From a virus (lineage: Duplodnaviria > Caudoviricetes): 59,314 bases of DNA. Location of the stretch: positions 1 to 59,314 of the IMG/VR virus record IMGVR_UViG_3300008267_000206; one strand, written 5' to 3'. Within the stretch, counting starts at the first letter, position 1, and every line of letters starts with the position of its first letter. The notes beneath the pieces were generated by a model, which saw nothing but the letters and a program-made list of their open reading frames with translations, was not told the origin of the DNA and did not search any database. The position numbers were made by a program, and so were the translations under genes. Below are positions 1 to 46,405 of the stretch, piece after piece.

Positions 1-30
1 TTTAATTTATATTTTATAAATATATTAAAA

Positions 31-66
31 AATAAAAAACCCCAAATTTTTTTACAAATTCGGGGT
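31..66 (-). terminator. Intrinsic terminator
   Basis: Minus strand reads accccgaattt-gtaaaa-aaatttggggt followed by tttttatttt. Confidence 0.6.
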
Positions 67-112
67 CAATAATAACCAATAAATAAGAAAGGGTTGTTTG
101 TTTTGGTATTAG

Positions 113-119
113 ATAAATA
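113..119 (-). promoter_or_regulatory. TATTTAT motif (putative late promoter); a second copy lies at 16-22
   Basis: Same heptamer found upstream of many operon heads in the window. Confidence 0.4.
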
Positions 120-174
120 TGAGTAAAATATTAAAAGTTCAAAAAACATTTATTTTTTTTTATTAAAATCAAAA

Positions 175-181
175 TATTTAT
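175..181 (+). promoter_or_regulatory. TATTTAT putative late promoter
   Basis: 6 nt upstream of ATG 188. Confidence 0.55.
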
Positions 182-187
182 TAAAAT

Positions 188-526
188 ATGTTAGTAACTA
201 TTAATGATGTTCAGTTTAAAGTTAAACTATTAAACACCCAAGAAGAGATTAGAAAAGGAATGATGGGTAAAGATTTTGACAAATCTTTTAATGGAATGTT
301 ATTTGATATGGGTGAGGGTGAGCATTGTTTTTGGATGAAAAATTGTATCATACCTCTTGACATCATCTTTATTAAAAATGATAAAATATCAAAAATTCAT
401 CACGATTGTCCTCCTTGTAAAACAGAAAATTGTAAAAGTTATTGCGGTAAAGGTGAATATGTTCTTGAAGTCAAAGGTGGATCCTGTAAAAAATTAGGTA
501 TTAAAGTTGGTGACTTAATTGAATAA
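188..526 (+). CDS. DUF192 family protein
   Basis: GMM..GMLF..FWMKN..IPLDIIF..YVLEV.GG..GIKVGD motif series typical of DUF192. Confidence 0.9.
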   Translation: MLVTINDVQFKVKLLNTQEEIRKGMMGKDFDKSFNGMLFDMGEGEHCFWMKNCIIPLDIIFIKNDKISKIHHDCPPCKTENCKSYCGKGEYVLEVKGGSCKKLGIKVGDLIE

Positions 527-527
527 A

Positions 528-1982: not shown

Positions 1983-1983
1983 A

Positions 1984-3036
1984 TTAAATTAATTTACCAA
2001 TAGTTTTTGCACCACCAATTATATTTATCAAATCTCCAATAACGTCTCCTGTTGATTTTTTTTCCGGTTCAGTTGTTTGTGCGGTTTGAGTTTGATCTGT
2101 AGGTTTAATTTCAGTTTCTTCAGGAAACTCTTTAGCCTCTTGTTCCCAATTACTTTTACCTTGAGGACTTTCAACGTATTCTGACATTCTATTATTAAAT
2201 TCTTCTTCCCCCATTTGAGATTCTAACTCTTCAGGTCCAACAAAGTTGGCCACTCCTACTAAATCTAAAAACCCTAACCAAAACTTTGTCTTAACTAAAA
2301 GTCTTGACAATTGTCTATTTTTAAATAAACCTCCCTTTTTCCATAATCTCATTAAACCACTATAACTATCAAGACCATAAGTTCTAAACATTTTAAATTC
2401 TGATTGTGTTATCTTACCTACCGTTGATGTTAGTTTAGTTCCTGACTTAATCATTTTATACTCTTTGGAGGCTTTGGTTATCATATTTATCCAATCTTTA
2501 ACAACTTTTGTAAATTTTTTACCTCCAGGGGCTTTTTCAAGTATTGTTAATAATGTACCACCTATAGACCCAATCTTTTCAAGTAATTTTCCTATTATCG
2601 GGAATTGTTTACCTAATTTAGCCCAAGCCGAAGAACCTTTAGCCAATTTAATTAATTTGGACGCTCTTCCTCCCGCCTTTAAAATACCAATAATTGGTTT
2701 TCCAACAACATCACCAACATAAGGAACTGCCGATATTAATGACATAAATCCAAATAAATTATCACCCTGTCTAAAATAATCAAGAGCGTTAATAATATCA
2801 ACAATACCTGTTGGGTCAAAAATACCCACAATATCTCCAAGAGTATTCCACCATCTAGATTCTTTTAATATTTTAGAATTTTTTGGTGAAAATTCTTTTA
2901 CGAATTCAAATATAAATTTTTTCTCGTATGGTAATAAATTATCCCATCTTTCTTCCAATAATTTATTTTGTTCTTCTTTATAGATTTCAACCAATCTAAA
3001 TTTTAGTTGTGTCTCAGTTAATATTGTTTGTTTCAT
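1984..3036 (-). CDS. Hypothetical protein with pre-toxin-TG-like hydrophobic hairpin
   Basis: LGDIVGIFDPTGIVDIINAL..GD..GFMSLISAVPYVGD followed by Gly/Lys-rich amphipathic helices. Confidence 0.5.
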   Translation of the reverse strand: MKQTILTETQLKFRLVEIYKEEQNKLLEERWDNLLPYEKKFIFEFVKEFSPKNSKILKESRWWNTLGDIVGIFDPTGIVDIINALDYFRQGDNLFGFMSLISAVPYVGDVVGKPIIGILKAGGRASKLIKLAKGSSAWAKLGKQFPIIGKLLEKIGSIGGTLLTILEKAPGGKKFTKVVKDWINMITKASKEYKMIKSGTKLTSTVGKITQSEFKMFRTYGLDSYSGLMRLWKKGGLFKNRQLSRLLVKTKFWLGFLDLVGVANFVGPEELESQMGEEEFNNRMSEYVESPQGKSNWEQEAKEFPEETEIKPTDQTQTAQTTEPEKKSTGDVIGDLINIIGGAKTIGKLI

Positions 3037-3042
3037 AATATA

Positions 3043-3049
3043 ATAAATA
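3043..3049 (-). promoter_or_regulatory. TATTTAT putative late promoter
   Basis: 6 nt upstream of ATG 3036. Confidence 0.6.
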
Positions 3050-3052
3050 TAG

Positions 3053-3433
3053 TTATCTATCTCTTCTTATAGGTTTATTTACACTTATTTCTGTGAATTT
3101 GTTTATATTATTTAATTGTTCTATCTTCTCAACTCTTTTTTCCAATAATTCCACCCTGAATTTGGTTTCAGATGGAGGATTTTCCATAAAAATTTTTGTC
3201 GCTTGATTAACTCCTGAAATTTGACCATTTAATGTCGCAACTTGAACTTCTAAATTACCATTTTTTGTTTCAAGAACTTCTATTCTTGCTTTTTGTTTAT
3301 TCTTGTCTTGAACCCAAAATACAATTGTTATCACCCATCCTATTACAACTACTAACGTTGAGATAATCCACTTAATATCTTTAACCGAAAAAGAAAATTT
3401 TTTATCCATTATGTTATTTTCTAAATCACTCAT
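3053..3433 (-). CDS. Single-TM coiled-coil membrane protein
   Basis: WIISTLVVVIGWVITIVFW then heptad-rich segment; ATGA overlap with upstream gene. Confidence 0.65.
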   Translation of the reverse strand: MSDLENNIMDKKFSFSVKDIKWIISTLVVVIGWVITIVFWVQDKNKQKARIEVLETKNGNLEVQVATLNGQISGVNQATKIFMENPPSETKFRVELLEKRVEKIEQLNNINKFTEISVNKPIRRDR

Positions 3434-3873
3434 AAAGCTGACATATTATTCCATTTAATAACTAACAGAGGATTAAATGAACGAGATTTTATTGTTAAGT
3501 TTTTGGCGCAAAATTGTCCAAAAAAAGTTACACCTAAAGGTGTATAATCATAATTAATTAATTTTAAACCATACCCCTCATTAATGAATATTGATATATT
3601 TCTAACATTGGTTGATGTGTATTTTGCATTCGCTCCGTCCCAATAATAACTCTGACTATAAAACCAAAAATCATAATAGTAATAACCGCTTTTATCATAC
3701 ACATTTCTTGTAACACAATAATCAAAATCATTATAAACATTATAACCTATTCCATATGTCCAATAACCTGAATTAGATGGTTGCCAATTAATATAAACAT
3801 CCTTTTTATCCCCAATAAAAGAAAATGAGAAAAGGATTGAAATAATAATTAATATTTTTTTAAATAATTTCAT
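3430..3873 (-). CDS. Exported aromatic-rich hypothetical protein
   Basis: Signal-peptide-like N-terminus, Tyr/Trp-rich body. Confidence 0.6.
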   Translation of the reverse strand: MKLFKKILIIISILFSFSFIGDKKDVYINWQPSNSGYWTYGIGYNVYNDFDYCVTRNVYDKSGYYYYDFWFYSQSYYWDGANAKYTSTNVRNISIFINEGYGLKLINYDYTPLGVTFFGQFCAKNLTIKSRSFNPLLVIKWNNMSAL

Positions 3874-3878
3874 TAGTT

Positions 3879-3885
3879 ATAAATA
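3879..3885 (-). promoter_or_regulatory. TATTTAT putative late promoter
   Basis: 5 nt upstream of ATG 3873. Confidence 0.6.
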
Positions 3886-3890
3886 TCCGA

Positions 3891-3920
3891 AAAACAAAAA
3901 AGGGACTTAATTAGTCCCTT
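3891..3920 (-). terminator. Intrinsic terminator
   Basis: aagggact-taatt-agtccctt stem with T-run on the minus strand, overlapping the MTase stop. Confidence 0.75.
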
Positions 3921-4770
3921 CTTCAAATTCAATTTTACTTTGTCGTTTTTCTTTTATAAAATGACTTATTCTCTCGTTAGCAATTTCCATATAATTTGGA
4001 GACAATTCGATTCCTATCCATCTCCTGTCAAGTATTTCTGCAGCAACTGCCGATGTCCCACTTCCCATAAAAGGATCTAATACAATATCATTTTTGTAAG
4101 TTAATATCTTAATTGCTTTTGTGGGGATGTCCATACTAAAAGTTGCCTTGGTTAATGGTCTTGAATCGTTTAGATATTTCCATTGTCCAAAAACAAGACT
4201 CATAAATTCTTTTTTATCTTCCTCAGTATAAACTTTCTTATCTTTTGTGACACCAAACAAATCAGTTTCTTTAACTATTTCAGGTGTCCATTGCGGTTCA
4301 CCTTTAATTTTTTTAATGTGATTCTTTTTATAAGCCAGAATTACACATTCTTTCGGGTTATAGATGTACGGGGCGGATGGACTCATCCAAGAACCCCAAG
4401 CGGTCGTTTTACTTCTGTGTGGTGAGTCTTCTTCCAAATCAACGATACCAAAAAATTTAAATCCGATATCTTTCATTATTTGCCAAACCTCAGATACAAA
4501 AAATATTCTTCCACCCTTTTCTTGTCTATTAATTTCGTAAGGTATATTAATCGCGACTCTACCATCATCTTTTAAAACTCTGTAAGCCTCTCTTATCCAA
4601 TCCTTACTAAACTCTTTATAAGTTTCAAAATCCATATCATCATCGTGAACATCATAATTGATTCCTACGCCATAAGGTGGTGATGTTAATACAAGATCCA
4701 CGCTTGATTCGGGTAATGTTTTCATAACCTGAATACAATCACCATTAATAATTTTTCCTGTTTCTATCAT
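3907..4770 (-). CDS. N4-C/N6-A DNA methyltransferase (beta class)
   Basis: TSPPY catalytic motif precedes DPFMGSGT SAM-binding motif. Confidence 0.93.
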   Translation of the reverse strand: MIETGKIINGDCIQVMKTLPESSVDLVLTSPPYGVGINYDVHDDDMDFETYKEFSKDWIREAYRVLKDDGRVAINIPYEINRQEKGGRIFFVSEVWQIMKDIGFKFFGIVDLEEDSPHRSKTTAWGSWMSPSAPYIYNPKECVILAYKKNHIKKIKGEPQWTPEIVKETDLFGVTKDKKVYTEEDKKEFMSLVFGQWKYLNDSRPLTKATFSMDIPTKAIKILTYKNDIVLDPFMGSGTSAVAAEILDRRWIGIELSPNYMEIANERISHFIKEKRQSKIEFEEGTN

Positions 4771-4779
4771 ATTTTAAAT

Positions 4780-5568
4780 TTAATAATTTTTCCAAAGAGT
4801 TTCAACCTTTGTTTTTTTGTTGAAGTTTCCATCCATTGTTTTAACTTCAAACTGAATTTTCTCAAATCCGTTTTTAGTTAATTTATCATATAACTCACAC
4901 TCATACCCACTAATCAGTATTCTTGAATTTGAATTTATAACAGATTCTATAAATTGTTCCTGTTCTTCGTTATTCATATCGACTTTATATCTAACATTAG
5001 TTCTGGTAGACCAATGGTATGGTGGATCGCAATATATTAAAGTGTTAGGGTTGTTATGTTTATTAATTAATTCAACACCATCTACGTTTGAAATTATAAC
5101 CTTAGATAATCTATCGTGTAATTCCGGTAATCTATCAATTGATGATAGAAAATCAGATACCGCTTTACTCATACTTCTTCTTACGTGAGTATTCATTGAG
5201 AACCCTCCAACTCCATTATGGGAAGTTCTGTTAACATAGAAGAAGTAAAACGCTCTTTCAACCAATGAAAGTTCTTTATTTAATTCCAACTTGTATTCTT
5301 TTCGTATATCATCAGAATAAAATACCAAATCACATTTCTCTTTAAATTCTTTGAATAGTTCTTTATCTGATATTACCTTATATAAAGAATAAACGTTTTT
5401 CTCCAAATCGTTGTATATTTCAACCTCAACTATAGGTTTCTTTAATCCTACAATGTAAGTTCCTCCAAATGGTTCAATATACGTTTTAAATGGTTCTTTG
5501 GGGAAGTGTTCTATTATTTTATTATAGAACCCTCCCTTACTTCCAAAGTATCTTATAGGTGCGTTCAT
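4780..5568 (-). CDS. dam: Dam-like D12-class N6-adenine DNA methyltransferase
   Basis: YFGSK, YIEPFGG, YND, YCDPPY. Confidence 0.92.
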   Translation of the reverse strand: MNAPIRYFGSKGGFYNKIIEHFPKEPFKTYIEPFGGTYIVGLKKPIVEVEIYNDLEKNVYSLYKVISDKELFKEFKEKCDLVFYSDDIRKEYKLELNKELSLVERAFYFFYVNRTSHNGVGGFSMNTHVRRSMSKAVSDFLSSIDRLPELHDRLSKVIISNVDGVELINKHNNPNTLIYCDPPYHWSTRTNVRYKVDMNNEEQEQFIESVINSNSRILISGYECELYDKLTKNGFEKIQFEVKTMDGNFNKKTKVETLWKNY

Positions 5569-5789
5569 TTACCCTCCAAAGTTTCAATGTGATGTTGGAT
5601 ATACCAGATAGCTTTTTTTAAATCCTCAATTTCCTTATCTGGGTTCTTTTTTCCAGCTCTTGAGATATACTTTACAGCGTTACCTAAACTAAAACCTAAT
5701 CCCCAAACATCAATTACCTTAATTGCTTCGTAAACATTACCTTCACCAAATTGATAATGATCCGGATGATTAACCTGTTCTTTACTCAT
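5565..5789 (-). CDS. DUF3310 family protein
   Basis: VNHPDHY..EAI..F.LGNAVKYISRAGKK..EDLKKAIWY. Confidence 0.9.
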   Translation of the reverse strand: MSKEQVNHPDHYQFGEGNVYEAIKVIDVWGLGFSLGNAVKYISRAGKKNPDKEIEDLKKAIWYIQHHIETLEGK

Positions 5790-5977
5790 ATTTCTTGTTT
5801 TAAAATTTTTTCTATTTCTTTATCCGATACCCCATTTCTATGTAGGTCAAAGACTTTTGAAGATACTTCATCCATAAAGATGAATGCGTCAGATGAAAAT
5901 AATTTTTTAAGTTGTTTTTTTTCTTCTAAGTATTCTTTGATTGTGTTCTCACTTACGAACCTACTATTGAATCCCAT
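5786..5977 (-). CDS. Hypothetical protein
   Basis: Coupled to both neighbours in the operon. Confidence 0.65.
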   Translation of the reverse strand: MGFNSRFVSENTIKEYLEEKKQLKKLFSSDAFIFMDEVSSKVFDLHRNGVSDKEIEKILKQEI

Positions 5978-6734
5978 AATTTTTAATATTAGTTGTTTTA
6001 AATTTTTTTGACCTTTGATTAATTTGAGACATTAATTTTCTTTTAAAGAGAGGTATTAGTGTTTCTTCAAATGGAAACATATCATTACATACCATTTCAA
6101 AAACAGGATATTTAATAACCTTCTCCTTATTGTCAAATCTACTTAAAACTTCCGATATTGTCAATTTTTCTTTACTTTCCCTATATAATAATTTTATGGT
6201 TGATTTCGTAACGTATTCAGAGTTTTTAACTTTTCTAATTGTGTATTCCCAAAAATAAACTTCTTCACCTTTAACATAAAAAAAGAACCCTTTTTTTGAG
6301 TTAATATTATCTTTATTTTTTCTAGTGACAATATCTATTGAATCATAAACAACCGACCAAAACGCCTTAACTATATTAAAATAATCAAGTAGTTTTGGTT
6401 GTGCCATTTTTAATATTTTTTGAAACTCGATCCTTTGTTCATCGGTCATTTCAGGAATATCTTTATATTTCAAATCCGTAATTAATATTTCTTCATCAGG
6501 TGATACTAACTTTTTATCGGTATATAAAATTTTGTGGTGTGATAATAATGATTGTACATTTCCCAAATGTAAGGATAATTCTGTAAACATTGGGTATAAC
6601 TTCATCTCTTCAAGAGAGTTATTTAACTTTTGAAAATAATTTAACAAAATATATTCTTTATGTTCAGAATCGATGGTACCTTTAAACATCCAGTCGGTAT
6701 CCATCATAAATTTTATTTTTGGTAATTTTTCCAT
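5964..6734 (-). CDS. Hypothetical protein
   Basis: 256-aa ORF in operon orientation; no motif recognised with confidence. Confidence 0.75.
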   Translation of the reverse strand: MEKLPKIKFMMDTDWMFKGTIDSEHKEYILLNYFQKLNNSLEEMKLYPMFTELSLHLGNVQSLLSHHKILYTDKKLVSPDEEILITDLKYKDIPEMTDEQRIEFQKILKMAQPKLLDYFNIVKAFWSVVYDSIDIVTRKNKDNINSKKGFFFYVKGEEVYFWEYTIRKVKNSEYVTKSTIKLLYRESKEKLTISEVLSRFDNKEKVIKYPVFEMVCNDMFPFEETLIPLFKRKLMSQINQRSKKFKTTNIKNYGIQ

Positions 6735-29973: not shown

Positions 29974-30609
29974 TTAATCTTTATATAAGTTGGAGCCTCT
30001 CATATACACAGCTCCTTGGTTTATTGTTAAATTTTCTAATTGTTTTATTTTTTCTTCAAGTTCACTAATCTTTTGAGTTTTCAAAGTTAGTTCTTTTTTC
30101 TGATTCAACAAAGTATTTTGCAACATTTTTATTTTTTCATCCGAATCATTACTAGGAACTTCTTTTATTATTTCCTTAATAACCTCTTTTTCTACAGGAA
30201 CTTCAACTATTTTCTCAACTTCTTTAATTACTTCTTTCTCTATGATTTGAGGTTCACTTTTGTCGTAAATATATTCTATTTTTGAGACAATTTTTTCAAC
30301 AGGAATTTCCTTGATAACCTCTCTATCAACATATTTTATCACCTCAACCTCTTTAATTGTTTCAACAATTCTATCGACAGGAATTTCAACTATTTTCTCA
30401 ACTTCAACAATTTTTTCCACAACTTCAGGTTCTACTTGGGGTGGTGTTTCTCCACCTAACATTCCGTATTTTTGAATGTCAAACCCTTGTTTAAAACATT
30501 TATTAACAAACGAGTTCATATCAATTATCTGATTAAGATAACAATAATCATAAACTTCTTTAAAGTTTTTTATCTCTAAATTAAATGTTTGCGAGTTTTT
30601 CTTTTCCAT
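29974..30609 (-). CDS. Protein with EKIVEVP/IKEV repeats and coiled coil
   Basis: Many imperfect V/I-E/K alternating repeats. Confidence 0.75.
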   Translation of the reverse strand: MEKKNSQTFNLEIKNFKEVYDYCYLNQIIDMNSFVNKCFKQGFDIQKYGMLGGETPPQVEPEVVEKIVEVEKIVEIPVDRIVETIKEVEVIKYVDREVIKEIPVEKIVSKIEYIYDKSEPQIIEKEVIKEVEKIVEVPVEKEVIKEIIKEVPSNDSDEKIKMLQNTLLNQKKELTLKTQKISELEEKIKQLENLTINQGAVYMRGSNLYKD

Positions 30610-33447: not shown

Positions 33448-33672
33448 ATGCCGGTACAAATAACCATAAATTCAATAACAGGATCATCTCCATATGATGT
33501 GTATTTGTGTGACGAACCAATTACTAGTTGTTTTTATATTGATACTATAACATCGAGTTCAATACCTTATGTGTTTAATGTTCCTGCTATTGTTGAAGAT
33601 AATCCCTCATTCAATTTAAAAATCGTGGATAGTAATGAGTGTGAATTTTATACGAATTTAATAGTTAGCTAA
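33448..33672 (+). CDS. Small Cys-containing beta protein, paralogous to the N-domain of 42317..43267
   Basis: ITINSITG..P..VYLC....C..I..I....P..FN.P....P...LKIV...C shared pattern. Confidence 0.75.
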   Translation: MPVQITINSITGSSPYDVYLCDEPITSCFYIDTITSSSIPYVFNVPAIVEDNPSFNLKIVDSNECEFYTNLIVS

Positions 33673-33674
33673 AT

Positions 33675-35942
33675 ATGGTAACAACAGGATGTTCATCAAC
33701 TTATTGTATACAAGGTACTAATTCCGTATGGGATGATGTTTATAGTGCTAACACAGGTTCAACGGTACCGTCATATAATGGTGAGTTATATTGGACTGGT
33801 TCAAGTAATGGTTATTTCATATATTATAAAAGTGCAACAACTCAATGGTGTTTATCAACGACTTTAGGTGGAGCTTGTTTATTATCAGGACCATCACCAT
33901 CACCTAATAGTTGTCCTAATTTATCACCATTTTTATTTAGTTCAGGTAATTGTCAATCAACTACAACAACCACAACTAATCCTTGTAATGATTTTGATTT
34001 TGAAGCGTATTTTGATTGTTATGTACCACCAACAACGACAACAACATCAACATCTACAACAACCACTACAACCACTTTACCTCCATCAATATGTTCAGGC
34101 GTTGGTGTTAACGCAATTGCCCAGTATGTTGAGCCTACCTCGACAACGACAACATCAACTACAACAATCGCTCCTATAGTTAGGGATTGCGTATTTTTTG
34201 GTGATGTAACATTTACAACGGTAAGTTCAATAATAGAGTGCCCTGGTTCTGATGGTGAACCTCTTAGTGAACAATTTCAAGATTGTTATACTGGCGAATT
34301 ACTATACGCACCAATACCAATTCTAACACCTAGCGGAAATACAATAACTAAATTTATGATTTTTAGAGCAACCGTTGATGGTGTATCTAGATGTATATCT
34401 TATTTAGGTCAAAATACTTGTAATACGGGAGTTAATAACATAATTCTAAATGAAGGTCCGATAGGATATTCTAATATAGGTCAATGTGATTTATGTGTTC
34501 CTCCACCTACCACAACAACAACGACAACAATTGCCCCTCCTTGTACTTCTTGTCCTGAAGGTTATGTTTTATTACCTGACGGATTTACTTGTGAAAAGAT
34601 TTTAGTTGAGTTGGCAACTCCACCGTTAAATCCAAGAATAATTGGTGTTAATTATGAAGATTATCCGGCAACATATGGCGGGGATGGGGGTTTAATAGTT
34701 TATGAAGAAATAACAAATAAGGGATGGCCTATTTTTGGTTTACCCAATAGACAAATACCTGTTTATTCACCACCATCAAATAATGATGCTAGTTTAAATA
34801 GTTTATCAATAATACCTAATAGTGGTTATACTAATCAAGGTGTTCTTTATACCTCGTTATCCCCATCATCATTACCCAATACCCCTCACGCTTCTTTGGA
34901 TTATCCATCAGGTTATTGGCCGGTAAGTCCTTGGCCTCCAACCAATAACCCACCAAATATACCTAATTTGTCCGGTTCTGTAACTCACGAAAGTTTATCT
35001 TATTTGTCGGAAAGTATTGTTATATCAAATGTTTTAAGCCTTGGTAGTGGTAGTTCTGTTAATATAGAATATAATAGACTAGATGGAATAAGTTTATTGT
35101 GGGGTAAGTCCAGTGTTCCAAATTCTTGGTCGTCAACCGTTGGTATTTGGTCAGACGCTCCCTCACCATATAACTCAAACCCTATTTATACATTGTCCAA
35201 TAGTTGGATTGGTATAACCCAATGTGTAACAATAGAGGAAGAAAAAAAATACTACTTATTGATAAATGCCAATAACTCTTTTAGACTCACTATTAACGGA
35301 TTATTGTCGGTTGAGATTAATAATGGTGATGGTGGAAAACAACCTTTAAAATTTGTAAATTGTTTTCCGATAACGTTACCCGCAGGAACTTCAACAATAT
35401 CTGTTGAGGCCGGTAATTATAGTGCCGGAGGTAATTTAGCGTTTGAATTATTAGATATTCCATTAGACATTTTATTATCCGCTTCAACATATTCTTCAAT
35501 AGAACCATATGTTTTATATTCAACCAAACAAAAAAGACCTAGAGCTTTCGACATTAACTTTATTAGTGGTAGCACAACCATAACTTCATCAGGTGAATTT
35601 TTACCGACAGATGTTGGTGGATTTGTTCAATTTCCTTCTTTTGTTTATTCCGGAACATATATTACGGAAGTTATAGATTCGAATACCGCAATAATTAATT
35701 CAGGTGCAACTGCAACAGGTTTAGGTTTATCGGGTAATACGAATGGACCTTCAACAGGAAGAGTATATTTTATATTCGATACCGGACAATTATTCGCTAG
35801 TGGTTTACCTCAAGGATTTACTTGTCCTGCGGGTTATACGTATGTAAATTGTGGAGGACCTACTTGTCTATCAATATCAAGAGTTTTTTGTCCGTCAATA
35901 CCCACCACAACAACAAGCACAACAACGATAGGTATTATATAA
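33675..35942 (+). CDS. Cys/Thr-rich appendage protein with PA14-like domain
   Basis: Five poly-Thr tracts; ANNSFRLTING..PITLPAG..ISVE PA14-like pattern. Confidence 0.65.
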   Translation: MVTTGCSSTYCIQGTNSVWDDVYSANTGSTVPSYNGELYWTGSSNGYFIYYKSATTQWCLSTTLGGACLLSGPSPSPNSCPNLSPFLFSSGNCQSTTTTTTNPCNDFDFEAYFDCYVPPTTTTTSTSTTTTTTTLPPSICSGVGVNAIAQYVEPTSTTTTSTTTIAPIVRDCVFFGDVTFTTVSSIIECPGSDGEPLSEQFQDCYTGELLYAPIPILTPSGNTITKFMIFRATVDGVSRCISYLGQNTCNTGVNNIILNEGPIGYSNIGQCDLCVPPPTTTTTTTIAPPCTSCPEGYVLLPDGFTCEKILVELATPPLNPRIIGVNYEDYPATYGGDGGLIVYEEITNKGWPIFGLPNRQIPVYSPPSNNDASLNSLSIIPNSGYTNQGVLYTSLSPSSLPNTPHASLDYPSGYWPVSPWPPTNNPPNIPNLSGSVTHESLSYLSESIVISNVLSLGSGSSVNIEYNRLDGISLLWGKSSVPNSWSSTVGIWSDAPSPYNSNPIYTLSNSWIGITQCVTIEEEKKYYLLINANNSFRLTINGLLSVEINNGDGGKQPLKFVNCFPITLPAGTSTISVEAGNYSAGGNLAFELLDIPLDILLSASTYSSIEPYVLYSTKQKRPRAFDINFISGSTTITSSGEFLPTDVGGFVQFPSFVYSGTYITEVIDSNTAIINSGATATGLGLSGNTNGPSTGRVYFIFDTGQLFASGLPQGFTCPAGYTYVNCGGPTCLSISRVFCPSIPTTTTSTTTIGII

Positions 35943-39076: not shown

Positions 39077-41212
39077 TTATAGGAATAAATCATTAAAATT
39101 ATTACCTTTATTCATTAAACTTTTAAATGAAACATTTTTAGTTTTACCACCCATTAACATTATTTCTACAGGACATTCTCCCTCAGTAACAATTACACTA
39201 CCTGAAAGTCCTACAACTATCCAATTATTTAACGGTGGAAATTGTGAACCATTTTGAGATAAAACAAAATAAGTTCTAGAAGGATTAAATATTACTTCCC
39301 ATCTAGATGTTGAACTATTCCAAATTAAAGTATCTCCATTTGTTGATTCCCAAGATAATTTACCATTAACAACCACATCGGGTTGGAATTCTATAGATTC
39401 TGTAGTAGACCCTGTGCTCTGTATTGTAGTTATTGACATACAAAGAGTGTTTCCTGTTGGTTGTGGTGATATTGTAGTAGTAGTTGTTGTAGTCGGTCTT
39501 ACCGCCAATAATTCACAAATCGTTACCGCAGTAAAATCACCATAATAATCAGTTGTTGTTGCCGTGTAAGAACCTTCAACTAAATTAAATATGTCAGGAC
39601 CCAAATTACCATTACTCCAAATTATTTCATATGGAGATGTTCCTCCAGATATTGATAAAGATATTGATCCGTCAGCCGCTGAAGGTGATGTCGGATTTGT
39701 TGGTATACATTCAACGTCCATATCAAATACGGTTGTTGGTATACATTCATTACAAGTCGGTATTACATAGGGTATGGGGGTTGGTGTTGGAGTTGGCGGT
39801 AAAGTTGGTATTGGTCCACAAATCCTGGCCGAAACTATCATATTGTATGGTGCGATACAACAAGGAAACGAATTATATACGTCCCACGTCCCAAAAAAAG
39901 GACAGAAACCATTTTTCGCCCTACTTTCAGCAATAATTTGAAAAGTATTACTATTATAAAAAGCCCAAGTACCATCAAATCTAAAAAAAGTTATTCCATT
40001 AATAAATAAAGGATATCCATTTATTGTTCCTGAAGGAGTCGCATTGAACCCATATGGACGCGGTACTTCTCCTCCACAAATTATTGATACATTGATACAT
40101 CCACATATGTTTAAAGAACCGCAAATATTTGAACAAGATTTGTTGCTTTCAGTAATTAAAGTTAACGGTTCGCTACTTACGGGTTTATCAAACGCGCAAA
40201 CCTCCATAACATCTCCCACATATAAAAAAACTTTTTTCTCATCATCATTTAAATAATCATAAAAAGTGATTATTTCGTAATCAGTTGTTGCGGTAATTGT
40301 CCAACATTTTTTAATATTAAAATTTGGATAACAATCATAGGTTGTTATATTAAAATCTTCGTAATATGGGTCGTATATTGTCCAATTATCTAATCCGTTA
40401 CCTGTTGGTGGGCAAATACCGGTGTCGGCTGATTCGGCAATTATGGTGTTTGGTAAGTAATTATTTGATGGTGTCAGAGCAAATAACCATTTTCCGTCCG
40501 ACCAATAAATTATATACTCATCTCCACCATAATTAGTCGTCCAAAAAGTTTTGCCATTTTGAGTTCCCCCAACAACAAAACCCATATCATCACCATCAAG
40601 GGTTAAAATTAGACATTCACATCCGTCTATCTCTCTACATTCAATAAAACAAGAATTTAAAGTTTCCGAACTATAAAAATCTGAAGTAGTTCCTGGTATT
40701 CTTCCTGGTGTCCCTTTCAAACAAAAAGACATAGTTTCGCCAGATTTTAATCTAACGTATTTTAAATCATTATCACAATTATAATATTCTATAGTATAGT
40801 CATTACTACCACTAAAAAACCAACAATTACAATTTTCACAACTATAAAAATCCGCATAAGGATTACAATTATAAACTTCAGTAATATTTAAAATTTCTGA
40901 AGGCGGTTCTGTCTCATCTAAACAATAATTAAAATTGCTATTATTAATTAACTCCCAATCGCCAATTGTCGTATCACAAGGTGATAATGGTTGTGTTGTT
41001 GTTTTATAAATAATAGTTGATAAATCACCTTCTTCAATTAAGCACCACTCAGAATTTGGCGAACCCGAAAATAATAAACGATAATTTTTAGACCCTATAT
41101 TACCAATATAAATAGATTCTCCGTTAAATATTTCAATCCCCTTTGAAAAAACTAAATCAAACGTTGAGTCATCGGAGCATTTGAATGTAAAACTTACGCA
41201 TTCACAAGACAT
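39077..41212 (-). CDS. Cys-rich modular appendage protein with an SprB-like repeat
   Basis: GSISLSISGGTSPYEIIWSNG..NL.EGSY; repeated NG+..W..CP..W modules; PTPTP and T6 linkers. Confidence 0.65.
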   Translation of the reverse strand: MSCECVSFTFKCSDDSTFDLVFSKGIEIFNGESIYIGNIGSKNYRLLFSGSPNSEWCLIEEGDLSTIIYKTTTQPLSPCDTTIGDWELINNSNFNYCLDETEPPSEILNITEVYNCNPYADFYSCENCNCWFFSGSNDYTIEYYNCDNDLKYVRLKSGETMSFCLKGTPGRIPGTTSDFYSSETLNSCFIECREIDGCECLILTLDGDDMGFVVGGTQNGKTFWTTNYGGDEYIIYWSDGKWLFALTPSNNYLPNTIIAESADTGICPPTGNGLDNWTIYDPYYEDFNITTYDCYPNFNIKKCWTITATTDYEIITFYDYLNDDEKKVFLYVGDVMEVCAFDKPVSSEPLTLITESNKSCSNICGSLNICGCINVSIICGGEVPRPYGFNATPSGTINGYPLFINGITFFRFDGTWAFYNSNTFQIIAESRAKNGFCPFFGTWDVYNSFPCCIAPYNMIVSARICGPIPTLPPTPTPTPIPYVIPTCNECIPTTVFDMDVECIPTNPTSPSAADGSISLSISGGTSPYEIIWSNGNLGPDIFNLVEGSYTATTTDYYGDFTAVTICELLAVRPTTTTTTTISPQPTGNTLCMSITTIQSTGSTTESIEFQPDVVVNGKLSWESTNGDTLIWNSSTSRWEVIFNPSRTYFVLSQNGSQFPPLNNWIVVGLSGSVIVTEGECPVEIMLMGGKTKNVSFKSLMNKGNNFNDLFL

Positions 41213-41229
41213 ATCTTAATTATTTATTC

Positions 41230-41236
41230 ATAAATA
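41230..41236 (-). promoter_or_regulatory. TATTTAT putative late promoter
   Basis: 17 nt upstream of ATG 41212. Confidence 0.55.
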
Positions 41237-41237
41237 T

Positions 41238-42215
41238 TTAGTTTTCATTTTTAATTATGTTTTTCATAATTTCAATATACTTTATTGTTGAACTATTTTT
41301 GTCCACGTAATCGAAATGATTTATATTCTGTTTTAATTTATCCAATGGATTAACATTTATATATTCACCTTTATAAAATTTTCTACCTTTTAGGTCTTGT
41401 GTTACTCCCGCCATATGTAGAATTGGTTTTTTTTCATAGGTTCTAATATCATCGGTCGCCCAAGAAAAATCAAGTTCATCTGTTATTTTAGTTTCAATTC
41501 CAAGTAACCATATATTCCATAAAACCGCCCACATATCTGATGTCCACATTTGTATTTCCCCTGGAGAAATTGGGTGTTTTGCGTGATAATTTCTCATTTC
41601 AGAATATAAAACCAAACAATCTTTTAATACTTTATCCCAAAATGTGTGGTCAATATTTTTCATAAGATATTGAGCGCCTCCAGAATTATTCTGATTACGT
41701 TTAATACAATCGACATCAAGACCGATTACATTTACCATCACCCTCATCAATTCATTATCTTTACTTGACGGATGTTTTGATTCATATCTCTTACAACATC
41801 CCTCAATATAATCGTGACCTATATATCCTATGGTATCTGATAGGTAAATAAAATCATCTTTTGATAACTTATCAAAATCGGGTAATTCTCTGAACACAAT
41901 ATCTGAATCGTGATAAAAATAAAATTTAGATAGTTGTGGGTTATCTTTTAACCAACTAGATAAAATCATTGGTCTTAAACTAGGTATATAGGTTTTGTCT
42001 GTTCTAATATCGGTATAATGATGAACATTTACACCTAATTTTTTAATCTCTAAAGATTCTTTACTCGGTTCTTTTCTATTAACCAACGCAAATAAAACGT
42101 GTATGTTTTCAGGTTTAATACCTTTCTCAATAAAATTATGGCAATAAACTTTTGTTTGCCAATGAAAATAAGGCACGTCTGGTTGTGCAGAAACAAATAC
42201 TAATTCATTATTCAT
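41238..42215 (-). CDS. GT-A glycosyltransferase, HPAT/SRGT (GT95/GT96)-like
   Basis: YFHWQ, HDSDIVF (DxD), GGAQYL, WTSDMWA, ILHMAG. Confidence 0.65.
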   Translation of the reverse strand: MNNELVFVSAQPDVPYFHWQTKVYCHNFIEKGIKPENIHVLFALVNRKEPSKESLEIKKLGVNVHHYTDIRTDKTYIPSLRPMILSSWLKDNPQLSKFYFYHDSDIVFRELPDFDKLSKDDFIYLSDTIGYIGHDYIEGCCKRYESKHPSSKDNELMRVMVNVIGLDVDCIKRNQNNSGGAQYLMKNIDHTFWDKVLKDCLVLYSEMRNYHAKHPISPGEIQMWTSDMWAVLWNIWLLGIETKITDELDFSWATDDIRTYEKKPILHMAGVTQDLKGRKFYKGEYINVNPLDKLKQNINHFDYVDKNSSTIKYIEIMKNIIKNEN

Positions 42216-42241
42216 AAATTAAATATATGAATAAATTAAGA

Positions 42242-42302
42242 ACAATAAAGTATTTCAAAATTTTCACACTCAGAACATATAATTCTTAATAAAATTACAG
42301 GA
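42242..42302. repeat. Direct repeat copy 1 (intergenic remnant)
   Basis: 52/61 identical to 43052-43112 by hand alignment. Confidence 0.9.
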
Positions 42303-42316
42303 ATAAAGATATTTTT

Positions 42317-43267
42317 TTATATATTAAAGTGGGTATTGACACAATTTGGGGATTGTGATGTTCCGTCAGCCCATTTAGAACCCCCAAGATAGTTTTGAAA
42401 TGTTATCGAATATGGCGGGTTTTTATCTATCAGATAAACATCACCACTTAAATTATTTACAATATAAATGTTACCGTTATCTTGAAATAATCCCCAAGCC
42501 CTATCTACCGGTGGTGTGACCAATATATCAAGTTCTTTATTTCCTGTTAAGTAGTCATATTGTATAATATAACAATTATAAATTGGAGCTCTTAATACCG
42601 AAACTATTAATTTTCCTGTCGTTGTGTATAATATATCGCCAGATACAAAATCTCCAACATCTAAGTCAAATTTATTTGTTATTGTTGCAGATGGTGTAGA
42701 AATATCAATTTCAACAATTTTATTTGGTGTTGTCGTAGAGTCCGAACTGATTAAGGTTAGATTTGTTAAGTCCTTAGCGCACAATCCGCTCCCAATTTGT
42801 ATGGGTAACGGTATATCTCTATTAAATGTGGCTAACCAAGGATTAAAAGTTATGTCCCACTCCCTAATATACATATTTGGAAAACTACTATAACGATATA
42901 ACCATAATTTGTTCGGAGTATTAGCAATGTCTTGACTACTAAAAGATGATGATACAATTAAATTTGTTGAGGTATTATTTGTCACATCATACAAATATAT
43001 TAAACCATCCCAAGAATAAATAACATCACAATCATTGTTAATTGGTTGATTACAATAAAGTACTTTAAAATTTTCGCACTCAGAACACACAATTTTTAGT
43101 AAAATTGCCGGAGCATAAATATATTGTGAGGGTAAATTAAATGAGATTGGAAATGTTGGTGTGGTTATTTGACCTATTTCAATACATTCAGTATTGTATA
43201 TGGTGCAAACATAAACACTACAAGGAAATGAATCTCCCGATACGTTATTTATTTCAACTGATGTCAT
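42317..43267 (-). CDS. Small Cys domain fused to a beta-propeller-like domain
   Basis: N-domain paralogous to 33448; blade-like SQDIA, SGDILY, AWGLF segments. Confidence 0.65.
   Translation of the reverse strand: MTSVEINNVSGDSFPCSVYVCTIYNTECIEIGQITTPTFPISFNLPSQYIYAPAILLKIVCSECENFKVLYCNQPINNDCDVIYSWDGLIYLYDVTNNTSTNLIVSSSFSSQDIANTPNKLWLYRYSSFPNMYIREWDITFNPWLATFNRDIPLPIQIGSGLCAKDLTNLTLISSDSTTTPNKIVEIDISTPSATITNKFDLDVGDFVSGDILYTTTGKLIVSVLRAPIYNCYIIQYDYLTGNKELDILVTPPVDRAWGLFQDNGNIYIVNNLSGDVYLIDKNPPYSITFQNYLGGSKWADGTSQSPNCVNTHFNI
43052..43112. repeat. Direct repeat copy 2 (inside CDS)
   Basis: Encodes PAILLKIVCSECENFKVLYC. Confidence 0.9.
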
Positions 43268-43270
43268 TTT

Positions 43271-46200
43271 TTAACATTCACTACAATCGTCATATATTTC
43301 CCCTTCTTCCCATATTATTGTTGCGGTTGATGTAACGGCAGATATCACTTCATAACAATTGTAATCGGTATCCGCAATTATCTTACCATCAACTTCATAC
43401 TGATCATCAATAGTTACAACTTCAGTATTTGGTGTAATACCGCTAACCATACACTCACCTAAACCTGAATCATAATAACTATAAATTTTTAAATCAGGAC
43501 TATCCCCAGATAAGTCAATAATTCTGTTATACCAATCTAAAAGACCTGTTCCTGTGAAAGGTCCGTTACAATTAGGTAAATAACTATTACTATCTATAGT
43601 CGTATTTGTTATTAATGTTGATAAAGGATATGTTAAGTCGGAACAACAATTATCAGGGTAATACATCACATCACTCATTTGGTCATAAAAATATACTCCC
43701 AATGTAGAATCGCATTTTTCTATAATATATATGTATAATCCTTCAATATCAAATAAAGATACGACCCCTTTATTACCATAAGTTTGGGTTTGTAATTCCC
43801 AATTATCGTCAAAAGTTAAACCACTTAAACAATATTTAGTCCTTATGTAATTTATGGTTGAATCGATAACTACACTGGTTGAGAAGCAGTCTAATGGTAT
43901 TGCATCTGAAAAATCAGTATCAGCACCTCCTCCCGGTAATTCCCAAAGTTGTAATTCAGGACAACAATTCTGAACTAAGTAATTTGTTGCACAAGCGTAA
44001 CAAGAAATTAAATATTTTATCACCATATTAATTATTACTTGTGCACCTCCCAAATTAGCGGAAATGTTTTCACAATCAGTTTTGACCTCAATAGTATTAT
44101 TTTCAGGGTCTATAATTACGGTATCAATACCATCATAACTTATTAATAATTCCGTAATTGCAGAATACCATAATTCATTGCTTGGGTAATCAGTTACACT
44201 ATCGCCAGTGAAAATATATTTTTCTTTAATGATTCCGTTAATATTAGTTTGTGCGATGAAAATGGTTTCATTAATAATACAATCTGTATCCGCAAATGTT
44301 AAATCATTAAATCCTTCTAACAATAAAGATTTAGGTCCTTTAACTAAGACAAATCCATTATTATCAAAATTAGAATCACAAATAGAAAATACTTCATATT
44401 GTTCAACATTATTCAAACCATTTACAAAAATAACTTCTGTTTTATTACAACCAATACTATCAGTTACTTCTAATGAATAAGTCCCAGCGGTCAAATTTGT
44501 CACCGTAATTCCTGTTTGACCATTAACATTAGGACTCCAATCTAAAGTAAATGGAGGCGTCCCTTCTGTAATAAAGGCGGTTATTGTTCCGTTACCACCT
44601 AAATCCGCAGGTGTTGATACTAAATTGAAGTCTATAGAACTTGTTGATAGTATACTAAAATTAACATTTTGTCCGCAATTAGTTGAGTCGGTTACGGTTG
44701 CCGAATAGTTACCGGGTGTTAAACCTGTAAATGTATAGCTAAGTCCTGTAAAAATTGCGAATTGGTCATTTATTTCATAGGTATATGGTTGTGTTCCTCC
44801 GGTACTAATATTTAATGTAACTTCACCTTCTGAAGAATTACAAGCACTACCTACCGTTGTTGCACTTAATCCAAATTTACTAGTATTATTTATTGTAAAC
44901 GTACTATTATAAACACAAGTTCCAATTCCACTATCTTCAATTTCTATACTATATATACCCGATTTTAAACCTGAGAATGTAGCGTTGGGTGTGGTCATTG
45001 AAGTTTGATTGTATGTGTTTCCACTACTATCAGTTATTTTAAAATTGTATGGTGCCGTTCCTCCGACCAAAGAAATAACCACTTTACCCGAACTATCATT
45101 ACAAAAAGAATTTGTTGTGTTAAAACTAACTAATGTAAACGAATTTGGCGTCAATAATGTTATACTTTGAGTGAAAGTACATAACCCAGCGTCGGTAACC
45201 GTAACGGTAAAATTACCACTACCTAAACCTGTAAATGTATAACTTTGAGCAAAACTAATACCATTTACACCATTAGACCCTAAGTAACTATATGGTGGAG
45301 TTCCTCCAATAACATTTACCGTTATTTCACCATCACCAACAAAACAACTAGGTGGTGTTAAATCAAAAGAACCAAAACTTACGGGTTCAACATCAATTAC
45401 CGTTGCGCCTAATGTTTTAATACAACCGGTAGAATCTTCTACTTGGACGCTATAACTACCTGACGTTATTCCTGTAATATTCTGCGTTGTTTCTCCGTTA
45501 CTCCACAGATAGGTATATGGTGGTGTTCCGGTTAAACCTGTAATATATATTGCACCAGCGTTATCTACAGAACATCCGGCATTATTTACAACATAAAAAC
45601 CATAATCAACGGTTATAGAACTTTTTACCAAAAACGTGGCACTTTGTCCTGTACAACCCCCTCCATCATCACCAATCACATAATAATAACCTCCCTCAAC
45701 GTCATTAAAAACGTATGTGTCAGATATTAGTGTTCCGGAAGTAACATATGTTCCATCTTGTTCGTATAGACTAAATGTTGCCAATCCGTAGTAATTTGAG
45801 GTTTCCGCGGTAATCGCACCATTTGGTAAATCACATAAAGTATCTCTAATACCTGTTATTGAAACGCTAGTTCCGCTAGAAATGTAGATATCGATAGTGT
45901 AAACGTTATTTATTGGTAAACAACTATCTATTAAATTAATTGTGTAAGTTCCCGCATATAAATTTGTTTGAGTATAAGTTGTTACACCAATCCCTAAAGG
46001 TACAATATCGGAAGGTTGTAAAGAAATTACGGTTATTGTTATATCGTTAGCCGGAGTAGCTCCACCAACGTTAGTTCCTAAAATGGTTAGAATGTCACCG
46101 ACTTGGTAATTAGTTCCAGGTGTTGATAAATTTAAATTGTAAGTAGTATTTATTTTAGTTACGTTAAAACTCGCTAAAGTTCCTGACCCGCCATTAACCG

Positions 46201-46405
46201 GCACATTAGGATAGTAATTATTTGGTCCTGGAGGTACGACAGATCCAGTTCCAACAAATGTATAACCTGAAACACCTGTGCCAGGGTATAATTCTTGTAT
46301 TGAGTAGTCGGGAGCACTCCCATAAATTTCTATTGTATATGCCCCTAATCCGGCATTTCCGCAGTCACCTGTAACTGATAAATTATATGATAAAGCACAA
46401 GACAT
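43271..46405 (-). CDS. SprB-repeat appendage/fibre protein
   Basis: About six to seven C..G.I....GGT.PY.Y.W....GL..G.Y.V.V.D..GC repeats. Confidence 0.8.
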   Translation of the reverse strand: MSCALSYNLSVTGDCGNAGLGAYTIEIYGSAPDYSIQELYPGTGVSGYTFVGTGSVVPPGPNNYYPNVPVNGGSGTLASFNVTKINTTYNLNLSTPGTNYQVGDILTILGTNVGGATPANDITITVISLQPSDIVPLGIGVTTYTQTNLYAGTYTINLIDSCLPINNVYTIDIYISSGTSVSITGIRDTLCDLPNGAITAETSNYYGLATFSLYEQDGTYVTSGTLISDTYVFNDVEGGYYYVIGDDGGGCTGQSATFLVKSSITVDYGFYVVNNAGCSVDNAGAIYITGLTGTPPYTYLWSNGETTQNITGITSGSYSVQVEDSTGCIKTLGATVIDVEPVSFGSFDLTPPSCFVGDGEITVNVIGGTPPYSYLGSNGVNGISFAQSYTFTGLGSGNFTVTVTDAGLCTFTQSITLLTPNSFTLVSFNTTNSFCNDSSGKVVISLVGGTAPYNFKITDSSGNTYNQTSMTTPNATFSGLKSGIYSIEIEDSGIGTCVYNSTFTINNTSKFGLSATTVGSACNSSEGEVTLNISTGGTQPYTYEINDQFAIFTGLSYTFTGLTPGNYSATVTDSTNCGQNVNFSILSTSSIDFNLVSTPADLGGNGTITAFITEGTPPFTLDWSPNVNGQTGITVTNLTAGTYSLEVTDSIGCNKTEVIFVNGLNNVEQYEVFSICDSNFDNNGFVLVKGPKSLLLEGFNDLTFADTDCIINETIFIAQTNINGIIKEKYIFTGDSVTDYPSNELWYSAITELLISYDGIDTVIIDPENNTIEVKTDCENISANLGGAQVIINMVIKYLISCYACATNYLVQNCCPELQLWELPGGGADTDFSDAIPLDCFSTSVVIDSTINYIRTKYCLSGLTFDDNWELQTQTYGNKGVVSLFDIEGLYIYIIEKCDSTLGVYFYDQMSDVMYYPDNCCSDLTYPLSTLITNTTIDSNSYLPNCNGPFTGTGLLDWYNRIIDLSGDSPDLKIYSYYDSGLGECMVSGITPNTEVVTIDDQYEVDGKIIADTDYNCYEVISAVTSTATIIWEEGEIYDDCSEC

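Follow-up and report, generated by a model that had tools for sequence, protein, structure and literature searches.

A Direct Repeat Behind a Phage Gene as the Probable Scar of C-Terminal Domain Gain

Introduction

Phage adhesin and fibre genes are mosaics, and the recombination events that built them are almost always inferred from clean end products. In tail fibres and tailspikes, C-terminal receptor-binding domains are exchanged as modules, usually by a clean replacement that leaves no duplicated remnant. For Rhs genes, C-terminal displacement by a single crossover with a circular intermediate was proposed by Jackson et al. (2009, BMC Genomics 10:584; PMC2935791). Orphan tips have been reported at contact-dependent growth inhibition (CDI) and Rhs loci (PMC3150448). 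Here we describe a gene of an uncultured freshwater phage (Duplodnaviria; Caudoviricetes) in the IMG/VR record IMGVR_UViG_3300008267_000206. The record was analysed in its entirety (59,314 bases, linear, G+C 29.6%, CheckV completeness about 20%) and is called the window below. The gene encodes a protein of 316 amino acids (aa) with an N-terminal domain (N-domain) and a predicted six-bladed beta-propeller, and the end of the N-domain coding region recurs as a direct repeat behind the stop codon. This repeat is probably the scar of a C-terminal domain gain by recombination.

The circular-intermediate model for Rhs tips has, to our knowledge, been proposed and never demonstrated. A literature search over titles and the starts of abstracts returned, by title, no case of a displaced 3' end in a phage gene. 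A sequence-only reading of the window, made before any database search, had noted a beta-propeller cassette bracketed by a direct repeat and had offered two explanations, domain acquisition with duplication of the 3' end and a reversible long/short switch.

Results

A repeat search placed the two copies at 42242-42315 and 43052-43125 (74 nucleotides (nt), 81% identity, spacing 810 nt). The sequence-only reading had given a match of 52 out of 61 positions between 42242-42302 and 43052-43112, 810 nt apart, which was reproduced exactly, and the two peptides that it quoted are correct, both being encoded on the minus strand. The 61-nt core that it described stands, although the homology is longer by 14 nt and reaches 42316, the base directly after the stop of the long open reading frame (ORF). 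A codon-wise comparison of codons 48-72 gave 60 identical nucleotides out of 75, with nine differences in the core. Codons 48-54 match at 13 of 21 positions (chance P = 0.0024), and codons 41-47, with 5 of 21, are at the chance level. The pair brackets an 810-nt in-frame unit and, since 810 nt are 270 codons, the two copies share their reading frame. The in-gene copy encodes PAILLKIVCSECENFKVLYC and then the rest of the ORF; in the same frame past the TAA of the ORF, the downstream copy encodes KNIFIPVILLRIICSECENFEILYCS and runs into a stop at 42236-42238. No ATG, GTG or TTG is present in the frame of the downstream copy. The repeat scored 34 (+1/-2, ungapped). When the 3-kb region was shuffled 100 times with its dinucleotides preserved, the mean score was 12.8 (standard deviation 1.0, maximum 16). 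Across the entire window, only two pairs at offsets of 30-6000 scored at least 20, and the 42242/43052 pair ranked first, making it the strongest local direct repeat in the window.

The protein of 316 aa belongs to a 90% cluster of six members. The long form was recorded as an identical protein on 2 contigs, and the other five members are 73-aa forms found on 1, 12, 6, 2 and 2 contigs, so that the short form outnumbers the long one both in sequences (five of six) and in contigs (23 versus 2). Another short form of 74 aa, P0045, shares 86% identity with residues 1-73. The C-terminus common to the six short forms reads ...R-I-V-C-S-E-C-E-(N/S)-F-E-I-L-Y-C-S. The residues R58, E68, I69 and S73 occur in the six of them and in the downstream copy, which otherwise differs only at I60; the in-gene copy has K58, K68 and V69 instead. 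The downstream copy also matches positions 52-74 of a hidden Markov model (HMM) of the N-domain (E = 1.5e-5).

Two IMG/VR contigs, L004 and L005, are syntenic with the locus and carry genes of 391, 302, 1010, 803, 73, 326, 704, 815 and 199 aa. In both, the 73-aa gene is followed by a 20-nt spacer and then by the same next gene as in the window. BLAST aligned window positions 43269-43052 with L005 7999-8216, which is the whole short gene (84.9% nucleotide identity), and positions 42313-41200 with L005 8143-9261, collinear from codon 48 of the short gene into the next gene. The stretch in between, 43051-42314, has no counterpart in L004 or L005. The short form is present also in relatives that are just about 79% identical in DNA. 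These comparisons show that the ancestral gene encoded the 73-residue beta-sandwich only, the short form being ancestral at the level of the clade. The downstream copy is best read as a 3' fragment of the original short gene that was displaced and is now silent.

The same collinearity bears on whether the downstream copy could be the relic of a second, tandem N-domain gene that lost its 5' two-thirds. Genomes of this kind hold several N-domain genes, 12 related loci have a second copy about 2 kb away, and in L019 and L020 a gene that ends in a propeller is directly followed by an N-domain gene. However, L004, L005 and the short-form allele of run X2 (see below) each have a single short gene, and this gene is collinear both with the N-domain of the long gene plus the DNA upstream of it and with the remnant plus the DNA downstream of it. 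A tandem ancestor would therefore require an additional precise fusion in every short-form lineage. No tandem of a long and a short gene of this subfamily was found in the related loci, and a tandem origin appears very unlikely.

A contig search found the locus, in part, in 20 public runs from 10 studies, nearly all labelled as freshwater, lake or aquaculture metagenomes and one just as "metagenome". In run X1, a 5941-nt contig spans the whole stretch in question with 0 differences; X1 may be the source sample, in which case it represents a different assembler and not independent data. The same run holds a diverged short-form contig that skips 829 nt and has 19 other letters between. Run X2, from another study, yielded a 918-nt contig (depth 13.2) that skips exactly 810 nt (42289 to 43100, with 6 letters fitting either side). 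Its flanks are nearly those of the window, with 4 differences over 501 nt on the upstream side and 7 over 147 nt on the downstream side. The sequence-only reading had proposed to look for an 810-bp deletion in reads or related genomes, and such an allele is present in this contig, an outcome that speaks for polymorphism. A 165-nt propeller piece from the same run is free of differences (depth 2.8). Since X1 and X2 each hold both forms, long and short alleles co-occur in single samples. In run X3, from a third study (2019), the pieces with zero differences cover 42022-42275, 42308-42466, 42989-43206 and 43355-43543 and include the long-form junctions. Stretches without contig cover in X2, X3 and X8 were given no weight. 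P0159, a short form identical to the long form through residue 57 and the only one with I29, has 918 nt as the length of its longest recorded contig, and from this matching length P0159 and the X2 allele are presumed to be the same.

These contigs also speak to the authenticity of the arrangement. The record is a metagenome assembly, both forms co-occur in samples, and the X3 contigs break at 42275 and 42308, on either side of the centre of the remnant, as might be expected if reads of long- and short-form strains had been joined artificially. Nonetheless, exact matches between the two copies never exceed 11 nt, which leaves an assembler without a repeat at which to mis-join them. In addition, the X1 contig crosses the arrangement without a difference (possibly in the same sample), and independent zero-difference pieces of X3 cover the stop with the first 9 nt of the remnant (42308-42466) and the 3' part of the remnant (42022-42275). 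An assembly artefact is extremely unlikely.

The differences between the copies are fixed in X1 and, where covered, in X3. The nine differences of the core comprise four synonymous and five non-synonymous ones, too few for a selection test, and one of the copies is under selection anyway. A direct repeat with one copy in the gene of a putative binding protein and the other in non-coding DNA just downstream has the look of the variable and template repeats of a diversity-generating retroelement, or of some other programmed variation system. This candidate was rejected, and its probability is close to negligible. The mismatch spectrum contradicts it, with A at 3 of the 9 core mismatches in the downstream copy or 2 of 9 in the in-gene copy and thus not adenine-specific; the in-gene copy does not lie at the variable end of the gene; the differences are fixed, as mentioned; and no RVT_1 was found at E<=1 in the record, which holds about 20% of the genome, where control genomes did match.

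The repeat is probably the scar of a C-terminal displacement. A resident gene that encoded only the 73-residue beta-sandwich would have received an 810-nt DNA unit from a related gene already of long architecture. This unit would consist of a core fragment homologous to about the last 25 codons of that gene, the linker, the six-bladed propeller and a stop codon, and would have recombined with the resident gene near codons 55-56. The resident 5' part would then read into a foreign hairpin and the propeller, and the resident's own last 19-26 codons with their stop would be shunted directly behind the new stop, where they would be untranslated and without a start codon. The reading frame would be kept in register as the unit is 270 whole codons. 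The DNA could have arrived as a circle, integrating through one crossover, or as a linear fragment joined homologously at one end and illegitimately at the other. The place of the crossover, the foreign source of in-gene codons 57-72 and the shape in which the DNA arrived are inferred; the anatomy of the locus, the clade-level ancestry of the short form, the empty-site allele in nature and the spread of both domains as modules are shown. Of the two explanations offered from the sequence alone, domain acquisition with 3'-end duplication is the one supported, by the short-only syntenic relatives, the short-form residues in the downstream copy and the modular nature of the propeller.

The distribution of differences along the two copies is consistent with this scheme. 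In-gene codons 57-72 contain five changes absent from the remnant and from L005 (K58, K68, V69 and two synonymous ones). The flank divergence from X2, 4/501 (0.8%), predicts 0.38 such changes (Poisson P = 5e-5), which indicates that the hairpin before the propeller most likely arrived together with it. The head of the in-gene copy (codons 48-54) and the tail of the remnant (codons 57-73) look resident, and the tail of the in-gene copy and the head of the remnant look foreign. The switch point of this mosaic is the ATTTTA of codons 55-56, identical in both copies. Such a reciprocal mosaic is the product of a single crossover, in either direction, between the short gene and a core fragment followed by propeller and stop. 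A linear piece with one illegitimate join fits the diverged head of the remnant less well, by a contrast that is marginal (Fisher P = 0.054).

Several observations weigh against this interpretation or parts of it. The contrast just mentioned is between the first 21 nt of the remnant (8 of 21 different) and the rest (7 of 48), and a remnant made wholly of resident DNA explains it poorly. The argument for a foreign hairpin is based on few sites; compared with L005 alone, the divergence of the in-gene tail (7/48 differences) does not clearly exceed that of the remnant tail (4/48). No close donor was found: the nearest propellers in the protein search are at most 49% identical, the N-domain alignment produced 96 pattern stretches among metagenome contigs of which none was confirmed, and a degenerate DNA pattern for the 3' end of the gene had 0 matches among metagenome contigs, so that these two scans yielded neither a donor nor more DNA of close relatives. 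As X2 lacks the states of the remnant at codons 54 and 60, it is not the exact recipient, and its allele could equally be a deletion product of the long allele. The allele evidence consists of Logan contigs of four runs and not of raw reads, and 42276-42307 (32 nt) is unbridged by any zero-difference X3 contig. Finally, a virion or binding role of the N-domain and the propeller is putative, and the gene has no PHROG or Pfam match.

The make-up of the X2 allele raises the second explanation, a long/short toggle at the level of the population. Recombination between the copies would excise the 810-nt unit to give the 73-aa form, and the excised unit or a co-infecting long-form genome would restore the propeller; this proposal builds on the displacement scar and does not replace it. 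The X2 allele has the composition expected of one crossover, in-gene-like to codon 54-56 and remnant-like from codon 57, with the joint in the shared 6 nt. P0159, presumed to be this allele, does not depart from the long form before residue 58 and alone among the short forms has I29. Both alleles co-occur in X1 and in X2, and the Rhs model (PMC2935791) postulates the same cycle of excision and integration. On the other side, the copies are a poor substrate for homologous recombination, with an overall identity of 80% and no exact match beyond 11 nt. P0159 has V60 where the remnant has I60, a difference of 2 nt, and is not a plain product of this allele. K58, K68 or V69, which would be expected in most deletion products, occur in none of the six short forms. 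The short form is found also in the relatives at about 79% DNA identity, no other scar or truncated N-domain was found in 53 related loci (HMM) or downstream of 14 long forms (DNA comparison), and contigs cannot show rare junctions. The toggle is unlikely. As a built-in mechanism, the reversible switch that had been suggested finds no support, given exact identities of at most 11 nt, the direct orientation of the copies, differences that are not adenine-specific, no reverse transcriptase found in the record, no recombinase family detected among the 39 window ORFs scanned with Pfam, and 0 of 6 short forms with K58, K68 or V69. A programmed reversible switch is not supported, and occasional conversion from long to short by deletion is possible.

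A further proposal, which we regard as improbable to about the same degree, is that the 810-nt unit may be a self-contained C-terminal cassette mobilised by recombination, with the 75-nt core fragment as its homology "attachment site". A crossover between the copies would excise a circle in which the propeller stop is joined to codon 48, and a single crossover would insert this circle into the bare 73-aa gene of a co-infecting genome. The reciprocal mosaic, the start of the homology right after the stop and the position of the X2 joint within ATTTTA fit a cassette better than an insertion with one illegitimate end. If this were the case, a surface protein would alternate, in natural populations of these large freshwater phages, between a form with the propeller and one without it, no dedicated recombinase being needed, and the cassette would be a phage counterpart of the circular-intermediate model for Rhs tips.

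Both domains are modular, which favours the displacement reading. Members of this phage gene family share the N-domain as a conserved core and vary in their C-termini. Among 53 related viral loci, which are counts of contigs and not of lineages and include many near-duplicates from different samples, the N-domain gene was bare in 14, had a short tail of about 25-30 residues in 21, was long (190-962 aa) in 16 and was cut by the end of the locus in 2. Behind the N-domain there may be nothing or as many as about 890 residues. The families found in the long C-termini differ and include the same propeller (L010, L011, L015), Gly_rich_2 (L014) and DUF285 (L021); six have no Pfam family. In an alignment of 25 sequences, the fusions always begin directly after the conserved Cys72. 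A six-frame search of the loci with the N-domain HMM showed that the sole truncated internal copy is that of the window, one other partial match being cut by a locus edge, and downstream of the 14 other long forms there is no scar (best score at most 11, versus 34 here). Further 3'-end remnants, which had been suggested as a thing to scan for, were absent from the window and from the inside of the 53 related loci. A viral-contig search with the whole 316-aa protein found no relative; the short form and the long-form relative P0011, used as queries, found relatives.

The propeller is spread more widely. The propeller HMM matches residues 77-316 of the window protein (E = 4e-87), the family is absent from Pfam, and an exhaustive HMMER search returned 340 representative relatives at E<=1e-3, nearly all of them matching by the propeller part alone and 48 of them at E<=1e-30. 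Among the best 150 of the 340, 144 match through the propeller only (74 to 2096 aa, some with several propeller copies) and five match both domains from residue 1-3 (P0011, P0033, P0047, P0052 and P0090). As a separate observation, the protein of L011 with N-domain and propeller (3001-5889, 962 aa) has a weak C-terminal match to intein-splicing (Hint-like) domains, as does P0047.

The AlphaFold2 model of the 316-aa protein (36 aligned sequences; pLDDT 91.0, pTM 0.81) predicts a six-stranded sandwich for residues 1-72 and 24 strands in residues 82-304. A Foldseek comparison with the PDB returned six-bladed propellers, namely Sevenless, SAKe6 designs, Keap1 Kelch and LRP6 (E = 3e-8 to 4e-6), with 9-16% identity to the solved propellers listed. 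In BFVD, the top match was an uncharacterised protein of Virus NIOZ-UU157 (E = 1.3e-16). The model and these matches confirm, at the level of structure prediction, a six-bladed beta-propeller fold with four-stranded blades, and the beta-propeller call of the sequence-only reading was accurate. The 316-aa protein matched no Pfam family at E<=0.01 and no PHROG. Membership in DUF4394/DUF6923 was considered on the basis of Atlas feature scores of 0.90-0.91 and was dropped, being unconfirmed in Pfam: the best Pfam match, DUF6923, had E = 0.7 and 10.1 bits versus a cut-off of 27, and one of the 36 aligned relatives matches it.

Modelled alone (25 sequences, pLDDT 90.1), the N-domain is predicted to be a generic Ig/FN3-like sandwich (best Z 6.8). 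An attempt to name its function by fold was abandoned; the hits were generic sandwiches only (Z at most 6.8), and type IX secretion system C-terminal domains tied with FN3, too little to name a function. The clear viral look-alikes of the fold were only three uncultured-phage proteins (334, 92 and 73 aa). For the gene and its large neighbours no PHROG or Pfam structural family was found. SprB repeats are present in the neighbours, the 1044-aa protein matching PF13573 at E = 2e-24. Judging from the architecture, and from the surrounding block of adhesin-like proteins, the N-domain would be a constant anchor on the particle or on a partner and the propeller an added binding head.

The coordinates of the locus are collected in Table 1. 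The gap of 101 nt created by the scar is the largest within the 36-59 kb gene block and the fourth largest of 51 same-strand gaps. A regulatory reading of the remnant was rejected: no terminator-like sites were found, and promoter-like sites (14, compared to 11.6 ± 4.0 in shuffles) are not enriched. No tRNA gene, such as a suppressor that would allow read-through of the TAA, was found in the window.

Table 1. Features of the locus and its paralog in the window
Feature	Position	Strand	Basis
Long-form gene, 316 aa: N-domain, short linker, six-bladed beta-propeller (predicted)	42317..43267	-	ORF and translation, AlphaFold2; TAA at 42317-42319
N-domain, codons 1-72, predicted six-stranded beta-sandwich ending at conserved Cys	43052..43267	-	25-sequence alignment, stand-alone model
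In-gene repeat copy, codons 48-72; last beta-hairpin (strands 54-61, 64-71) in the model	43052..43126	-	Repeat comparison, model
Probably acquired part, codons 73-316: linker of about 9 residues and predicted six-bladed propeller	42320..43051	-	Without counterpart in L004/L005; HMM
Downstream repeat copy, homologous to codons 48-72	42242..42316	-	60/75 identity; collinear with L005; N-domain HMM
Original last codon Ser73 and original stop of the short gene	42236..42241	-	Translation ends ...LYCS and stop, as in 6/6 short forms
Native 20-nt spacer	42216..42235	-	Equal length in L005, between 8222 and 8243
Next gene, 325 aa, phrog_4417	41238..42215		Present in short-form relatives too
Stand-alone N-domain paralog, 74 aa	33448..33672	+	41% identity; HMM; syntenic with 71-aa gene in L019

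Other repeats and pattern matches were inspected as well. The second pair that scored at least 20 in the window scan (30194-30222 and 30377-30405, 29 nt, 97% identical) lies inside the ORF 29974..30609, and its offset of 183 is a multiple of 3. A second scar candidate, 41209-41235 and 42193-42219 (27 nt, 81%), scores about 12, equal to the shuffle mean, and was treated as chance; the pair links the region around the start of the gene 41238..42215 with the spacer behind its stop, and the similarity may alternatively reflect a shared translation-start context. A degenerate DNA pattern matched four loci in viral contigs. Two of these correspond to the L004 and L005 contigs. In the remaining two, L007 and L009, the match falls close to the beginning of a 67-aa ORF and the gene order differs; they were judged unrelated from the ORF layout alone.

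At the 5' end of the phrog_4417 gene (42128-42200), many Logan contigs of other genomes pile up, and in X2 their depths add up to as much as 217. The differences in these contigs are spaced by multiples of three bases (42171, 42174, 42177, 42180, 42183, 42189), and the N-terminus looks strongly conserved, in a phage protein that is widespread and of unknown function.

Neighbouring genes behave similarly to the long-form gene. The upstream 1044-aa SprB-repeat protein (43271-46405, minus strand) has 239 extra C-terminal residues compared to its 803-aa orthologue in L004 and L005, with residues 1-805 aligning to residues 1-802 of the orthologue at 80.5%. Those contigs lack any counterpart of positions 44000 to 43270, the extension lying especially at 43274-43990, and no scar is visible there. 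The extension is independent of the propeller gain, since 43100-43600 is covered by the short-form contig of X2. The paralog at 33448, to which the sequence-only reading had pointed, is a real gene (41% identity, E = 5.5e-7; N-domain HMM E = 6.5e-25). Together with the following 755-aa gene (33448-35942, plus strand) it sits between a primase and a RuvC-like gene, and the pair is syntenic with a pair of 71 and 719 aa in L019 (1311-3687). The 755-aa and 719-aa proteins share only residues 10-276 (46% identity); the L019 protein ends in a propeller of the same family and that of the window does not.

The window encodes replication and repair proteins of phage type (primase, SbcC-like, RuvC-like, a sigma-70-type factor, DnaJ and three DNA methyltransferases), and its 36-59 kb region encodes, as a block on the minus strand, large proteins rich in Cys, of which two have SprB repeats. 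Relatives that carry the N-domain gene family are on contigs that reach 304-309 kb (L011, 308,574 nt; L033, 304,365 nt), which indicates that the window is a fragment of a very large phage. GenBank phages gave no match to 41200-44200 (blastn, distant mode) nor to the protein (tblastn). The SprB repeats would, as a weak guess, point to a Bacteroidota host.

Discussion

The locus offers a natural view of an evolutionary process that is already known, here in protein families that are undescribed. A single locus keeps the scar, and three states can be compared with it: an empty-site allele, distant short-form relatives, and other heads on the same anchor. Through the scar and these states, the breakpoints can be narrowed down to a few nucleotides, and they fall at the edge of a structural domain, namely at the sandwich's last hairpin. 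The analysis defines two uncharacterised families, a 72-residue sandwich "anchor" and a six-bladed propeller, both of which act as interchangeable modules. On architectural grounds, phages with the long and the short allele would differ in what they adhere to. The practical value is modest, as the phage is uncultured and the domain functions are only putative.

With respect to structure, the propeller resembles the Kelch and YWTD/LDL-receptor class B propellers in its predicted 24 strands and six blades and differs from them in having no sequence membership in these groups. The gene resembles those of tail fibres in its conserved N-terminal part, the swapped C-terminal heads, the breakpoints at domain boundaries and the presence of different heads on the same anchor. 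Unlike in the usual tail-fibre cases, a duplicated remnant was left here, and neither domain is in a described tail-fibre family (no PHROG or Pfam match).

The closest parallel is with Rhs genes (PMC2935791). In both cases a conserved core is joined to an exchangeable C-terminal tip, and the incoming tip carries a core fragment. The old end is shunted to a silent site just downstream, where its own core fragment repeats part of the main gene in direct orientation. One crossover, perhaps involving a circle, accounts for this topology in both, and the cores of donor and recipient must be related. Of the hallmarks of Rhs-type displacement, a conserved core with decoupled tips and a retained old end with a core fragment are found in the phage locus; arrays of dissociated tips, or recurrence at many loci, are not, the scar being a single one. 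Unlike Rhs and CdiA, which have YD-repeat or filamentous haemagglutinin cores, the phage gene has neither YD repeats nor a toxin/immunity pair; its tip is a propeller and its length is 73 or 316 codons. The displaced "tip" amounts to one codon and a stop, and the core fragment is 75 nt at 80% identity and not a near-identical hyperconserved region. The topology nevertheless matches that of Rhs C-terminal displacement, which suggests, by analogy, that phage genes may gain domains by the same route.

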